Shown: positions 6,371-20,554 of the stretch, one piece after another | Layout: each line of letters begins with the position of its first letter | Position numbering within the stretch: the first letter of the stretch is position 1 | Source: a virus | Lineage: Duplodnaviria > Heunggongvirae > Uroviricota > Caudoviricetes | DNA length: 27,998 bases | Reading direction: 5' to 3' (one strand) | Virus record (IMG/VR): IMGVR_UViG_640753024_000003 | Span: 1-27,998 of that record | Translations under genes and position numbers: made by a program | The notes under the pieces: model-generated | Told to the model about the DNA's origin: nothing | The model's database searches: none | Seen by the model: only the letters and a program-made list of their open reading frames with translations

Positions 6371-6667
6371 TTATACCTCTGAATCAATATCAACCTGGTG
6401 GTGAGCAATGGTTTCAACCATGTACTGGATGTGTTCTGCCATGCGCTCCTGAAACTCAACATCGTCATCAAACGCACGGGTAATGGCTTTTTTGCTGGCC
6501 CCGTGGCGTTGCAAATGATCGATGCATAGCGATTCAAACAGGTGCTGGGGCAGGCCTTTTTCCATGTCGTCTGCCAGTTCTGCCTCTTTCTCTTCACGGG
6601 CGATCTGCTGGTAGTGACGCGCCCAACTCTGAGCCTCAAGACGATCCTGAATGTAATAAGCGTTCAT
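6371..6667 (-). CDS. gam: Gam, RecBCD inhibitor (98-aa short form)
   Basis: 98-aa [59 protein letters not shown]..., recognised as lambda GamS; no in-frame extension corresponding to the long isoform. Confidence 0.9.
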
Positions 6668-13375: not shown

Positions 13376-13639
13376 GTAATAATCACTTTTCCAACCGTGC
13401 TATAGTAAGAAAGTTAGGTAAGTACAATAAAAGTATCTATCCTGAACGAAGCGTCCTGAGCTATGGTTTTACTATAGGGACTGCCAATGGATGCTGGCGT
13501 TCCCGTTCTAGCAGTTCAACAATTCCCAATCACAAAACAATTCACTGATAACGAACTTTGCACACTCGCCTGGTTATGGCGAGCAGGGAATGTGATGTTA
13601 ATTGCCTACCAGAACGTTACTCATCTTCTTCAGGATGCG

Positions 13640-13647
13640 GAGCATGG
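13640..13647. repeat. Target-site duplication (left copy) GAGCATGG
   Basis: 8-bp sequence identical to 16090-16097, directly abutting the IS terminal inverted repeat. Confidence 0.85.
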
Positions 13648-13684
13648 GTAAGCGTGCAGCAAGAACCGTATTGACGGGGATGTG

Positions 13685-15223
13685 TTATTCAGTCGGCAGT
13701 GCTACGCGCCAGGGGAGCAGTTCGCCGACCCGGTTTATCGGCCAGTCGGCTATGACGTCAAGGACATAGCGGAGGTAGCTTTCTGGCTCCACTCCGTTCA
13801 GTTTGCACGTCCCGATCAGGCTGTACAGCAGCGCTCCCCGCTCTCCTCCATGATCCGAACCGAAGAACAGGTAGTTTTTGCGGCCCAGACTGACCATCCG
13901 CAACGCATTTTCAGCGATGTTATTGTCCGCCTCAGCCCAGCCATCATCTGCATAGTACGTCAGCGCCGGCCACTGGTTCAGGGCGTATGCGAACGCTTTC
14001 GCCAGTTCTGAGTGTCGCGACAGGGTTTTCATCTTTTCACGCAACCAGCTTTCCAGGGATTTCAACAGCGGTTTCGTTTTTCGCTGACGTTCAGCAAGCC
14101 GCTGCTCTGCCGGCATTCCCCTTATATCCGCCTCTATGGCGTACAACTGACCGATCTGCTCCAGGGCTTCTTCCGTCAGTGCTGACGGGATGCGGACGTG
14201 CACATCGTGGATCTTTCGGCGGGCATGAGCCCAGCAGGCAGCTTCCGTTATCCCACCATTGCGATACAGCTCGTTGAACCCGGCGTACGCATCCGCTTGC
14301 AGCACACCGCTGAAGCAGGCAAGATGAGTCTGCGGATGGATGCCTTTTCTGTCCGGGCTGTAAGCGAACCACACTGCAGGTGCCAACGCTGACCCGGCAT
14401 TGCGGTCATCACGAACATACGCCCACAACCGCCCGGTCTTCGTCTTCTTATTACCCGGCAGCAGTACCTGGACCGGGGTATCATCGGCATGGAGTTTGCC
14501 GTCAGTCATGACATAGCCATGAAGCGCCTCTTCCAGCGGAGACAGCAGCCGGCAGCATGCATCCACCCAGCCCGACAGCAGTGAACGGCTCAGCTCCACA
14601 CCTTGCCGGCCGTATATTTCTGACTGGCGATACAGCGGGGTGTGCTCTGCATACTTCGAGGTCAGCACGCGGGCCAGCAGCCCCGGTCCGGCGATACCCC
14701 GCTCGATGGGCCGCGAAGGTGCAGGTGCCTGCACGATGGCATCGCACTGAGTACAGGCATGTTTTTCCCGTACCGTCCGGATAACCCGGAAGGCACTACG
14801 CATCAACTCCAGCTGTTCGGCGGTATCCTCGCCCAGATAGCTCAGTGAACCGCCGCAGTTCGGGCAGCACGGCGCCGCAGGCAACAGTCGCTTTTCGTCA
14901 CGGGGTAGTGATTCAGGGAACGGCTTACGGGTGCGGGTCTGACGCAACGGACGCTGTACAGCCGGGTCATACACCCTACCAGTCAGCGTATCGCTCTCTT
15001 TCTGAAGCCGGTTCAGATCGGCTTCCATTTGTGCGATACGGCGGGAGACTTTTTCGGAACGACTGCCGAAGTTCATCCGGCGGAGTTTATCCAGCTGCGC
15101 CTGCAGATGGTCTATTTCGCGCTCCCAGTTGCTCAGCTTTTCCTGCAGGGCGTGGATCAGCGCTTCCTGTTCGGCCAGGCGCTGTTTCAGCAGGAAGATG
15201 TCGTCAGAAGAGATGTCGTTCAT
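13685..15223 (-). CDS. tnpC: IS66-family transposase TnpC
   Basis: 512-aa ORF with N-terminal coiled coil/leucine zipper, CxxC...CxxC zinc finger (CCPNCGG...CTQCD) and DDE-type core. Confidence 0.9.
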
Positions 15224-15272
15224 AAGCCCGTATTTTACCGGGCTTATTCTGTGACAACCAGGATAAAGAGAT

Positions 15273-15620
15273 TTACAGCATGGTCAGGGAGGTCAGCAAC
15301 CGCTTGGGCTGTCGCCAGTCGATACCTTCCAGCAGCATCGCCAGCTGCGCCTGCGTAAGGAACACTTTGCCATCACGGGCTGACGGCCAGGCGAAGCGCC
15401 CACGCTCCAGCCGTTTGGTCAGGAGGCACAGTCCGTCACCGGTGGACCACAGCAGTTTAACCTGACTGCCGCTGCGGCCCCGGAAAATGAAAACATGGCC
15501 GGACATGGGATCGTCTTTCAGCGCCGTTTGTACTTTCGCAGCCAGGCCGTTGAAGCCATTTCTCATATCGGTGATACCGGCAACCAGCCAAATTTTGGTC
15601 CCGGAAGGTAACGGGATCAT
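15273..15620 (-). CDS. tnpB: IS66 accessory protein TnpB (Orf2)
   Basis: 115-aa [33 protein letters not shown]... in the middle position of the IS66 operon, overlapping tnpA stop. Confidence 0.85.
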
Positions 15621-16018
15621 CGCTTCAGTTCCTGTATCAGCAGAGTCAGGAGCTTTTCGCTGACATTGCCATTGAAGCGGAGCGTCCCGTGCCGGAACGT
15701 TACCTCACAGCTGATACTGAGGGTTTCCGGGTCCTCTGCGAGCGATTCTGGCTGTTCGGCAGCTGCATCGAGAGTCACAGGAAGTAGCTGGGGGCTCTCT
15801 GAAGAAGGTAATAGCAGCTTTCCCTCGCGCCATTGTTGTCGCCATTTGAACAACAGATTGGCGTTAATGCCATTTTCAAGAGCAAGTTTTGAGATGGATA
15901 TCCCGGGTTCACAGGAGGCAGCAACGAGCTGCTGTTTAAATTCGGGAGGATAATTAGGGCAGCCTTTTCGCCTGCCGGGAGTCACATTTTTCTGCATATC
16001 TGACACTTTGGTTCCCAC
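15617..16018 (-). CDS. tnpA: IS66 accessory protein TnpA (Orf1, HTH)
   Basis: 133-aa ORF in the first position of the IS66 operon; ATGA overlap with tnpB. Confidence 0.8.
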   Translation of the reverse strand: MGTKVSDMQKNVTPGRRKGCPNYPPEFKQQLVAASCEPGISISKLALENGINANLLFKWRQQWREGKLLLPSSESPQLLPVTLDAAAEQPESLAEDPETLSISCEVTFRHGTLRFNGNVSEKLLTLLIQELKR

Positions 16019-16089
16019 TACTTATTTGGTGGACACCACTTTGTCTAATTTGTCAGATTCTGACCAGACGGTTCAGGCTGTACGCTTAC

Positions 16090-16097
16090 GAGCATGG
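16090..16097. repeat. Target-site duplication (right copy) GAGCATGG
   Basis: Identical to 13640-13647. Confidence 0.85.
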
Positions 16098-16278
16098 TGA
16101 GGCTGGTCACTTCACTTCCATCGAGCAAGAATATCCCCAGAGACTCAACAGAGCGCGAGCAATCCTCGCCCGAGAAACGGCACATGTAAAACTTCAGCCG
16201 TGGCAGGATGATAAGTGGAGTCAAGTATTGCCGCATTTACCTCAGAATCTGTTTCAATAAAGGCGCTAGTTAGTAAGG

Positions 16279-16304
16279 CTTCCGTCATTCTGCGATGACG
16301 GAAG
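16279..16304. other. Perfect 10-bp inverted repeat hairpin (cttccgtcat-N6-atgacggaag)
   Basis: Lies 18 nt after the stop of the IS-interrupted small ORF and 130 nt upstream of the HNH-motif gene; no U-tract. Confidence 0.4.
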
Positions 16305-16434
16305 TGCGGGCTGCGTACGGGAGAGCAATTGCATGAATAATATAAATATTCCGCTCACTCCATATAGCGATTTCTGATACAAACTTATCTATTGTGGTAA
16401 AATTATAGAAACAAACTTATAGCGTACTAACCAT

Positions 16435-17217
16435 ATGGACAATATTAATAAACACGGGCTCTCAAGAAGAATACCTGAGACAATAAAACGTCAGATAAGG
16501 CAAAGGTGCGGCTTTGGCTGTGTAATTTGTGGATTTGGATTTTATGATTATGAGCATTTTAAACCTGACTTCGTTGATGCCAAAATACATGATCCGAATG
16601 GAATGACACTTCTTTGCTCCCAATGCAATCAAAAAAGAGCTCGTGGTAGACTTTCAGCACAGACAGTGGAAATAGCTGACAGAAATCCCAAGTGCTTACA
16701 GGCTGGTTTTGCAAATGAAATGTTTGATTTTCATAATGAGCCTATAACAGTAAAATTTGCAGGAGTGACGTTTCATAACTGTCAAAATTTGATTGTAGTC
16801 AACGAACAACCCATTCTTTCTGTGAAACCTTCACCCATACCACATGGACCGATGCTTTTATCAGGAATTTTCTGTAATTCTATTGGTAAGGAGACTTTAC
16901 TGATAGATGAAAATGAATGGAAAGCTAAATCAGACAATTGGGATGTGGAGTGTACCGGCCCGCGTATAACAATACGACGTGGGCCAGGAGAGTTTGCCCT
17001 CGTTCTAAAAATGGAACCTCCAACAGGATTGATTGTTGAGCGTCTTGATATGTTGTATGAAGGGGTCAGGATGAAAGGAGATAAAGATCTGCTGGAAGTT
17101 TCGATTAATGGAGGTCCCTTGCACAGATGGCAATCATGCTCAATGTCAAATTGCCATACAGGGCTTGCGATTCAGGGCGGTATTAGAGCTGCTAATGATC
17201 CTTTGTATTGCGCCTAA
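16435..17217 (+). CDS. Hypothetical protein with N-terminal HNH/His-Me-finger nuclease-like zinc-finger motif and ~190-aa uncharacterised C-terminal domain
   Basis: 260-aa ORF; residues ~25-66 CGFGCVICGFGFYDYEHFKPDFVDAKIHDPNGMTLLCSQCNQ give Cys pairs flanking conserved His and Asn as in HNH nucleases; AT-rich codon usage; occupies the variable cargo slot between the recombinase and ybcN. Confidence 0.55.
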   Translation: MDNINKHGLSRRIPETIKRQIRQRCGFGCVICGFGFYDYEHFKPDFVDAKIHDPNGMTLLCSQCNQKRARGRLSAQTVEIADRNPKCLQAGFANEMFDFHNEPITVKFAGVTFHNCQNLIVVNEQPILSVKPSPIPHGPMLLSGIFCNSIGKETLLIDENEWKAKSDNWDVECTGPRITIRRGPGEFALVLKMEPPTGLIVERLDMLYEGVRMKGDKDLLEVSINGGPLHRWQSCSMSNCHTGLAIQGGIRAANDPLYCA

Positions 17218-17257
17218 ATCCACTAAATTGATTTTCAACAATCAACTTGCCATAATT

Positions 17258-17290
17258 AAGTCACCGGAGTTTGAACTCCTCCGGTGACTT
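17258..17290. other. Perfect 12-bp inverted repeat (aagtcaccggag-N9-ctccggtgactt)
   Basis: Strong hairpin/palindrome 41 nt after the HNH-gene stop; no flanking U-tract on either strand, so terminator versus protein-binding site is unresolved. Confidence 0.4.
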
Positions 17291-19471: not shown

Positions 19472-20554
19472 TTAGAACTGGTAAACCATACCTACAGCAA
19501 CGATATCATCGGTAGCAACGCCAGATGCTTTCGTGAAATCGCTCTTATCAATCAGGTTGATTTTGTAGTCAACAAAAGTGGACATATTTTTGTTGAAGTA
19601 ATAGGTTGCACCTACATCAACATATTCAACCAGGTCCTGATCACCCCAAACACCCAAGTCTTTTCCTTTAGAATGCAGGTAAGCAACGGATGGACGCAGG
19701 CCGAAGTCGAACTGATATTGTGCAACAGCTTCGAAGTTTTGTGCTTTGTTGGCAATATGGTTATTACCAAAAACAGTCATGTTCTGGGTTTCAGAATAGG
19801 TGGTGGCCAGATAGATGTTGTTCGCATCATATTTCAGACCAGCTGCCCATACTTCAGCATTTTGACCAGAAGCATTCAGACCGTTGTTACCGTAGATAAC
19901 CTGATTATTAGTGCGATCAGATTTAGCATAGGTTGCACCCACGCCGAATCCTTCATACTCATAAGTAGTTGAGAAACCGAAACCATCGCCATTAGCTTCA
20001 GTTACTTCATTTCGGTCATTTTTGCCCTGATACTGAGCTGCAAAGTTCAGGCCATCAACCAGACCAAAGAAGTCGTTGTTACGATAAGTTGCAACACCTG
20101 TGGTGCGACCAGTCATGAATACATCTGTTTGGGTCCAGGTATCGCCACCGAATTCTGGCAGAACGTCAGTCCACGCACCGATGTCGTATGCTACACCGTA
20201 GTTACGGCCGTAATCGATTGAGCCGTAGTCACCGAATTTCAGGCCTGCAAATGCAAGACGGGTTTTGTCTTTGGAGGAACCTTGAGATTCAGCGCGGTTG
20301 CCTTTGAATTCATATTCCCACTGACCGAAACCAGTCAGTTGATCGTTGATTTGGGTTTCACCTTTGAAGCCAAGACGGGCATAAGTAGTATCACCATCAT
20401 CTGCATCATTAGAGGAGAAGTAGTGCTTAGCATTAACTTTCCCGTACAGATCCAGCTTGTTACTGTCTTTATTATAAATTTCAGCTGCCTGAGCAGACAT
20501 CGCCATCAGTACTGATGCAGCTACAGCAGAAATTGCCACTGTTAATTTTTTCAT
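19472..20554 (-). CDS. nmpC: Prophage-encoded general porin of the OmpC/OmpF/NmpC family (intact)
   Basis: 360-aa ORF with signal peptide ([23 protein letters not shown]) and C-terminal VYQF beta-barrel signal; antisense between Q and the lysis genes as in DLP12. Confidence 0.9.

Follow-up and report, generated by a model that had tools for sequence, protein, structure and literature searches.

The question raised by this locus is what function can be given to a small protein, labelled 'hypothetical protein' in RefSeq, that is encoded among the early-right genes of a lambdoid prophage. The DNA analyzed here (hereafter the window) is the whole 27,998-nucleotide stretch of the IMG/VR virus record IMGVR_UViG_640753024_000003, positions 1 to 27,998, and corresponds to a lambdoid prophage integrated beside ybhC, with an early-right region of the DLP12 type. 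The gene in question, at positions 16435 to 17217, encodes an N-terminal HNH domain fused to a C-terminal all-beta domain, and we refer to it as the HNH-beta gene. An earlier note, made from the sequence alone, had proposed it as an HNH-motif anti-phage nuclease acting as a single gene in the variable cargo slot of the nin region. From sequence and model comparisons, we regard it as a candidate single-gene system of defense against phages or other mobile genetic elements, with a probability of roughly 0.65 for a defensive role in general.

The open reading frame (ORF) delimited in the earlier note was recovered as such, and the string quoted there, CGFGCVICGFGFYDYEHFKPDFVDAKIHDPNGMTLLCSQCNQ, corresponds to residues 25-66 of its product. 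This product is 100% identical to the RefSeq protein WP_001301145.1, its exact sequence is found on 985 contigs, and full-length homologs (E-values from 1e-85 to 1e-180) are present in Proteobacteria and beyond; therefore, it is not a chance ORF. Within E. coli, the gene is carried at ≥99% identity by 79-81 of 5,426 complete genomes (~1.5%), always on the chromosome, as a rule in one copy per genome and at most in two. At least two prophage contexts were observed in this species, the argU DLP12 remnant (strain D2) and the ybhC prophage (strain ST866 and others).

The assignment of the N-terminal domain to the HNH/His-Me finger nucleases, previously read from a motif, is sustained at the level of the family. 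The window protein itself scores 14.4 bits against Pfam HNH (PF01844; gathering cut-off 21.4, E 0.043, residues 29-68 aligned to profile positions 1-44) and matches HNH PHROGs weakly (6.4e-4 and weaker). Its relative P0185 reaches 25 bits, above the cut-off, and 22 of 38 family N-domains match Pfam HNH at E <= 0.01, the best at 1e-6. The profile of 38 diverse N-domains also matches the HNH domain of IscB (E 0.0037) with CxxC, Y(E/H)H and LCxxCH aligned, and residues E40-H41 and N65 of the window protein fall on the YHHI...CPKCH motif of IscB. Searches of the PDB with the whole protein (phmmer) or the family profile gave nothing meaningful, and just the N-domain profile gave the HNH match. The AlphaFold2 model, computed with 42 homologs (predicted local distance difference test score, pLDDT, 88.6; predicted template modelling score, pTM, 0.74), retrieved HNH proteins only when compared with BFVD by Foldseek, and its N-domain shows the beta-beta-alpha-metal arrangement. 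Profile and structure searches thus converge on an HNH fold, and not on another one.

Conservation was evaluated in 102 relatives with pairwise identity of 50% or less. The zinc ligands are C29-x2-C32 and C61-x2-C64 (C29 in 97/97, C32 in 97/98, C61 in 101/101; position 64 is Cys in 84 relatives and His in 17). The Cys-x3-Cys-x2-Cys arrangement described in the earlier note is correct for the last two cysteines, which belong to these ligands, and not for the first one, as C25 is kept in the close clade only (53/102). The putative catalytic residues of the window protein are E40-H41, the invariant H52 and N65, and at the corresponding positions H41 is conserved in 97/98 and H52 in 100/100, and at position 65, His is present in 91 of the 102 relatives and Asn in three. 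Because Asn at this last position characterizes the window clade, the window protein is, judging from its residues, an HNN-type variant of HNH with a complete active site.

The C-terminal part, in which no motif had been recognised, indeed remained without match in Pfam, BFVD or structural comparisons. Residues 85-246 are predicted to form about 16 consecutive beta-strands (pLDDT of the beta-domain model, 85), and comparing its two halves by hhalign revealed no internal duplication. No known fold or family was found for this domain in Pfam, NCBIfam and BFVD searches, nor did model comparison reveal structural similarity to SRA, EVE/PUA, SBD, the McrA N-domain or SAVED. From these sequence and model searches, the beta-domain appears to be structurally novel, a fold without solved relative. 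Its hallmark is the motif NEW-x(5-7)-NWD(V/I)E ... R, in which N160 and D170 are found in 102/102 relatives, W169 in 97, W162 in 89 and R181 in 87. Since the conservation of N160, D170 and W169 equals that of the catalytic residues, this region points to a functional site, more than to a scaffold. In the close family, the median net charge is about -7 for the beta-domain (isoelectric point, pI, about 5) and about +4 for the N-domain.

This conserved site allows a reading in which the protein is a Type IV-like modification-dependent enzyme, whose beta-domain would read modified phage DNA (hydroxymethylated, glucosylated or hypermodified) and steer the HNH domain toward it. Unmodified host DNA would then be spared, so that neither a methyltransferase nor an immunity gene would be required; the HNH domain similar to those of McrA, TagI and ScoMcrA, together with the 85 loci in which neither a methyltransferase nor any other partner is conserved, favors such an enzyme. 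Its role would still be defensive, through direct recognition of DNA and not as a gated effector. The invariant Asn/Asp and Trp cluster resembles the chemistry of the flipped-base pockets of SRA and McrB-N, McrA is itself borne by a prophage (e14), and Type IV neighbors are found in some genomes (GmrSD three times, and mREase_IV). However, the acidity of the beta-domain is unusual for a DNA-binding reader, its model resembles none of the reader folds compared (SRA, EVE/PUA, SBD, McrA N-domain), the PADLOC mREase_IV models are not matched, and the nuclease comes first, the reverse of the order in McrA-type enzymes. We consider this reading unlikely.

The family is much wider than its E. coli copies. 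The profile of the C-terminal domain, searched against 1.84 billion representatives, retrieved 1,548 proteins at E <= 1e-3 (808 of them at E <= 1e-10), that is, more than 1,500 family representatives, each being a cluster at 50% identity. In nearly all full-length matches the beta-domain starts at residue 83-87, straight after the HNH domain, and the two-domain HNH-beta architecture is therefore fixed. A separate architecture consisting of the beta-domain only was considered and rejected, as the short forms begin at an internal Met or within the HNH motif and correspond to truncated gene calls. Some distant members have additional C-terminal tails, containing a SEC-C motif (CPCGSGxKYKxCCG), TPR repeats or a CxxCxxCC domain (P0151, P0160, P0180, P0183, P0216, P0225, P0229, P0152, P0199, P0169 and P0181).

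Scanning one genome per species, we found 214 carriers, distributed in Proteobacteria, Cyanobacteria, Planctomycetes, Acidobacteria, Verrucomicrobia, Chlamydiae, Bacteroidota, Deinococcus, Streptomyces and one Methanothrix metagenome-assembled genome. Seven plasmids carry a family member, a single phage record does so out of 50,697, and most members are located outside phages. This sparse and patchy distribution is the one expected for a horizontally moving accessory gene. The family corresponds to the orphan PHROG 6544, annotated as 'unknown function' (phrog_6544), and no description of it was found in PADLOC v2, NCBIfam or the literature; newer defense catalogues were outside this scope, and a recent description elsewhere is possible.

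The gene also travels without companions. No conserved neighbor was found: in 85 loci from different species, each protein family encoded within 5 kb of the gene is shared by six loci at most. From this lack of a recurrent neighbor, and from the occurrence of the gene as a single-gene cassette (see below), it follows that the protein probably acts alone; judged by its surroundings, the HNH-beta gene is a self-contained unit without a dedicated partner, which excludes its membership in Septu, retron, CBASS or toxin-immunity systems. The same absence of a separate immunity gene would be expected if the protein were a toxin neutralized in cis, as in a toxin-antitoxin fusion or addiction module, with stabilization of the mobile element as its main effect. 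The joining of a basic nuclease domain to an acidic one and the RelE/XRE neighbor at one locus (P. luteola) would also fit such a module. Nevertheless, no sign of a proteolytically labile domain was detected, and integron cassettes and prophage hotspots carry toxin-antitoxin and defense genes alike, so that the context does not discriminate between them. Moreover, many fused toxin-antitoxin systems are defense systems themselves and overlap with the reading that we favor. A module with stabilization as its main role is thus, in our opinion, highly improbable.

Several of the genomic contexts suggest defense. In a P2-like prophage of Buttiauxella brennerae (L015, 7508-13121), a homolog of 62% identity occupies the interval between gpA and the portal gene, and the cos-proximal old/tin locus of P2-like phages has been shown to be a reservoir of anti-phage systems (Rousset et al., 2022; PMC9122126). 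Similarly, the P. luteola member follows a P2-type portal gene and the RelE/XRE pair. At a prophage end of Alcaligenes faecalis (L097, 6151-10338), the family member comes first in a row that continues with a 67-residue ORF, a 245-residue HNH protein of Type IV-like character and a DUF4238 protein, an accessory cluster oriented opposite to the phage lysis and tail genes; a DUF4238 protein protects by itself against T7 (PMC9122126). The 245-residue neighbor was also considered as a possible paralog of the family, which was rejected on comparison; it is mREase_IV-like. In Vibrio cholerae (L010, 600-1620), the homolog is a single-gene superintegron cassette with VCR/attC flanks, located between acetyltransferase and glyoxalase cassettes. 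Other immediate neighbors include GmrSD (three loci), Schlafen/AlbA_2, NsnA, HEC-05/06, mREase_IV, ApeA and PD-T4-2. In Paraburkholderia (L005, 1527-7490), the upstream neighbor of the homolog is a 1,987-residue UvrA-like protein with several ABC-ATPase modules that matches PADLOC mad3 (6e-154); it may be a defense-related giant ATPase, and mad3-type models also account for many of the generic matches in the control set described below.

The E. coli locus itself shows the same kind of context. The homology with the K-12 DLP12 prophage ends at 13384, at the end of ybcK, and restarts at 17228, 11 bp past the stop codon of the HNH-beta gene. These edges place the gene at the right border of a genuine cargo slot, as the earlier note had claimed; ybcL-ybcM occupy this interval in K-12, and the content of the ybcK-ybcN interval differs among E. 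coli prophages. Three alleles were found: K-12 has ybcL-ybcM, 79 genomes carry the HNH-beta gene, and 26 E. coli genomes have a 643-residue SIR2-family protein between P and ylcH/ybcN. This SIR2 protein matches the PADLOC models for pAgo-associated SIR2 (4.8e-63) and the single-gene candidate PDC-S65 (4.3e-33), and thus one alternative occupant of the slot is of a defense-associated type. In this third allele, a decayed P22AR fragment and then the final 50 bp of the HNH-beta gene, fused to the backbone, come after the SIR2 gene (for example in E. coli Res13-Lact-PER12-33-A, locus L101, 1080-3550, compared with the corresponding 50 bp of the window). This relic shows that the slot is multi-allelic and that its cargo is exchanged, turning over through recombination. 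Together, the P2 gpA-portal hotspot, the integron cassette, the DUF4238 and Type IV-like neighbors and the SIR2 gene in the E. coli slot make the HNH-beta gene a good candidate for defense, in our view its most likely role.

The turnover of the slot is also relevant for the main alternative named in the earlier note, a homing endonuclease. The product would then be an HNH homing enzyme of the free-standing kind, or some other nuclease with a purely selfish role, and the gene would spread by cleavage of alleles that lack it. Indeed, it encodes an HNH nuclease sporadically present in mobile DNA, the homology starts and stops at the ORF borders, and the 50-bp 3' relic in another allele testifies to turnover at the site. 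Nevertheless, the domain search retrieved no NUMOD, IENR1 or helix-turn-helix-type modules, no intron or intein context was found, the gene is present in a single one of the 50,697 phage records, and there are at most two copies per genome. Conservation of the second domain is strong across many phyla and includes invariant polar residues, unlike the fast-evolving target-recognition domains expected in homing enzymes; the insertion contexts are unrelated, and between slot alleles the whole cargo is exchanged, so that they are not simply alleles with and without the gene. Homing is therefore disfavored, and we give it very little credence.

The other proposed landmarks of the slot fared less well (Table 1). 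The IS66 element, described as one bracket of the gene, lies 345 bp from its ATG within the upstream neighbor, a P22AR C-terminal fragment gene; it is strain-specific, missing from the 49 closest E. coli genomes, and the fragment is split in the window only. The element does not belong to the HNH-beta system, although with this insertion transcripts that read through from the early-right operon may no longer reach the HNH-beta gene. The other bracket, a supposed 12-bp perfect palindrome, is an inverted repeat with a spacer, and since it lies within the backbone shared with K-12 DLP12, it does not delimit the cargo. A second perfect inverted repeat (16279-16304; 10-nt arms and 6-nt loop), also without T-run, is located about 20 bp past the stop codon of the P22AR fragment. 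The AT-richness of the gene is true in relation to the downstream nin genes (GC content of 0.407, compared with 0.50-0.52), and not in relation to the upstream cargo gene ybcK (0.36).

Table 1. Coordinates in the window of the HNH-beta gene, its domains and the surrounding features.
Feature	Position	Strand	Remarks
HNH + all-beta fusion gene, complete ORF	16435..17217	+	ATG start, 260 aa plus stop
N-terminal basic HNH/His-Me finger domain	16435..16686	+	Predicted; residues 1-84, pI 9.2
C-terminal acidic all-beta domain	16687..17214	+	Predicted; residues 85-260, pI 5.7, ordered to ~residue 246
Last 50 bp of the HNH gene	17168..17217	+	Kept as a backbone-linked relic where the slot holds the SIR2 gene (26 E. 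coli genomes)
Variable cargo slot, DLP12-type nin region	13385..17227	.	P22AR C-terminal fragment, IS66-family element, HNH gene; K-12 has ybcL-ybcM
P22AR C-terminal fragment gene, split by IS66	13487-13647 / 16090-16260		
IS66-family insertion sequence, complete, tnpA/B/C	13648..16089	-	Terminal repeats beginning GTAAGCGT
IS66 8-bp target duplication	13640-13647 and 16090-16097		GAGCATGG
Upstream intergenic region, 174 bp	16261..16434	+	One weak sigma-70-like site, extended -10, at 16374-16403
Inverted repeat, 12-nt arms, 9-nt spacer	17258..17290	.	Backbone upstream of ylcH/ybcN; no T-run after

The promoter that the gene was supposed to carry in its leader is also poorly sustained. The single sigma-70-like site matches the consensus at 9 of 12 positions, in a region that contains six promoter-like sites when 3.0 +/- 1.4 are expected by chance, and no clear Shine-Dalgarno or ribosome-binding site was found in this upstream region. 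No promoter or terminator seems to travel with the gene, as the upstream and downstream DNA is not conserved among the enterobacterial homolog loci and the similarity spans from ATG to stop. With one weak site, no clear ribosome-binding site and unconserved flanks, an own promoter is unproven.

In the rest of the window, the early-right gene order is P, ren, emrE, ylcJ and ybcK, followed by ybcN, ninE, ybcO, rusA, ylcG and quuD. The prophage porin gene (ompC/nmpC-like, 360 residues; 19472-20554, minus strand) is intact, whereas K-12 nmpC is broken by IS5. The gam-like gene (6371-6667, minus strand) has just 98 codons, and its counterpart in the nearly identical ST866 prophage, interrupted by an internal stop, is labelled a pseudogene; for these reasons, the Red/Gam module of this prophage may be partly decayed.

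The position of the gene among the early genes must be weighed with caution. In the lambdoid prophages of E. coli, Enterobacter and Klebsiella, it is always found between the replication genes and NinG/RusA/Q, on the strand of the early-right operon, and the nin region hosts the His-Me finger nucleases YbcO and NinG, with presumed recombination roles (PMC5714182). This co-orientation with the early operon, among nin nucleases, maintains the idea that the protein serves the phage's own DNA metabolism, either as a structure-specific or recombination/replication endonuclease (like NinG/Rap, YbcO and RusA) or as a degrader of host DNA, and not in defense. However, the gene co-occurs with NinG within the same nin region and with RusA and YbcO in the window, and so is not a replacement for them. 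A role in phage metabolism is also at odds with the one phage record in 50,697 and the many members outside phages, including an integron cassette, plasmids and the chromosomes of Cyanobacteria, Planctomycetes, Streptomyces and one archaeon. In P2-like and Pseudomonas prophages it occupies accessory or antisense positions (the Pseudomonas member is antisense to all its neighbors), and in E. coli it is dispensable, being present in 1.5% of the genomes, with the slot otherwise filled by other cargo. We regard this function as quite unlikely, less so than homing or an addiction module.

Nevertheless, the same early-right position is one of several observations that count against a defensive role. 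Located between the replication genes and Q and among RusA, YbcO and NinG, the lambdoid copies would also be expressed during the lytic growth of the phage itself, and the case for a promoter active in the lysogen is weak, judging from the upstream region. The PADLOC check of the gene itself was negative, with no match among the 5,027 models of PADLOC-DB v2.0.0 beyond a marginal one to the PtuB HNH (E 0.04), and the identifiers WP_001301145, A0A377E6L8 and phrog_6544 were not mentioned in the papers searched. Housekeeping genes are neighbors at many loci, and strong PADLOC matches were obtained for roughly 12 of 147 immediate neighbors and for 4 of 105 control genes located 7-10 kb away, which is not significantly above the control. 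As these control genes also match PADLOC models, namely DarT, DrmC, Old and a Type I restriction enzyme along with a large number of generic ATPase ones, a formal defense enrichment is not shown; the scoring is weakened by frequent matches to generic ATPase, UvrA-like and methylase models. Finally, gating by the beta-domain, considered next, is argued from charge, conservation and analogy only.

Within the defensive reading, the form that we favor is a gated sensor-effector nuclease that would guard the lysogen and its prophage against competing phages or other invading DNA. The acidic beta-domain, unlike a DNA-binding one, the best structural match to Cap5 with the same domain order, and the TPR and SEC-C tails point in this direction; TPR, SEC-C and CxxCxxCC tails are such as sensor-effector proteins often have. 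The gene moves on its own in temperate phages, integrons and genomic islands, as part of their accessory cargo. The beta-domain, through the N160/W169/D170 site, would keep the nuclease inactive or off the host DNA until an infection-specific cue (for instance a protein of the phage, some feature of a nucleic acid, or a small molecule) made it release or direct the nuclease. The HNH domain would then cut DNA, with H41 as the general base and E40 and N65 holding the metal. Nuclease activity, anti-phage role and gating are all inferred, and by analogy we hold this specific form as tentative, a little short of even odds. More doubtful, although conceivable, is that the window protein is the founding member of an undescribed and widespread family of single-protein immune nucleases, whose more than 1,500 clusters at 50% identity are spread over many bacterial phyla and reach at least one archaeon. 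The beta-domain would in that case be a new, partner-free sensor fold that detects an infection-specific cue through N160/W169/D170 and unleashes the HNH nuclease.

If it is a defense gene, a compact single-gene nuclease system of 0.8 kb, in which a domain of unknown fold serves as sensor or regulator, would be added to the anti-phage repertoire, and the orphan family PHROG 6544 and its RefSeq 'hypothetical protein' would be accounted for across many phyla. The protein lacks mechanistic surprise until the role of the beta-domain is known; the hypothesis lends itself to direct testing, given the small size of the protein, its clear active-site residues and its native host, E. coli. In addition, the ybcK-ybcN segment of DLP12-type lambdoid prophages could be mined for more systems, as the P2 and P4 hotspots were.

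The comparison with known systems delimits what the HNH-beta family may be. Compared with the single-chain HNH Type IV enzymes EcoKMcrA, ScoMcrA, TagI and VcaM4I, the domain order is reversed, with the HNH first in the window protein, and its second domain is acidic and unlike any known reader, the mREase_IV models being unmatched. The Septu PtuB and the retron HNH (TIGR02646) require an ATPase (PtuA) or a retron partner (reverse transcriptase and msr-msd), whereas the HNH-beta family has neither, and the NCBIfam search of the window protein gave no match, TIGR02646 included. NinG/Rap and YbcO (DUF1364) share with the HNH-beta gene the superfamily and the lambdoid neighborhood, but the latter carries in addition a beta-domain of 175 residues, has most of its relatives outside phages and co-occurs with both; in agreement, the window protein has no Pfam match to PF05766 (NinG) or DUF1364/PF07102 (YbcO), and the PHROG NinG match has an E-value of 0.52. 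An HNH core in mobile DNA is common to the homing endonucleases of the I-HmuI type, although HNH-beta has neither their DNA-binding modules nor their intron/intein context, and is conserved over phyla and nearly absent from sequenced phage genomes. Features of colicin- or CDI-type HNH toxins were not found either, with no immunity neighbor in the 85 loci and no delivery domain in the 260 residues of the protein. CBASS Cap5 (HNH-SAVED) is the best structural match of the modelled window protein and has the same domain order, but the latter shows no SAVED fold and is accompanied by no cyclase (CD-NTase) or other conserved operon partner. In its organization, the family is comparable to Shedu and CapRel-SJ46, although it has no sequence or fold relationship to the PD-(D/E)xK nuclease of the former or the pyrophosphokinase of the latter. 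Shedu is a single-protein sensor-nuclease and CapRel-SJ46 a fused toxin-antitoxin defense; systems of these kinds are often prophage-encoded, with sensor parts that differ from one relative to another. Both are likewise one protein with an effector held inactive by its own sensor, an arrangement that the HNH-beta family, by analogy, may share.

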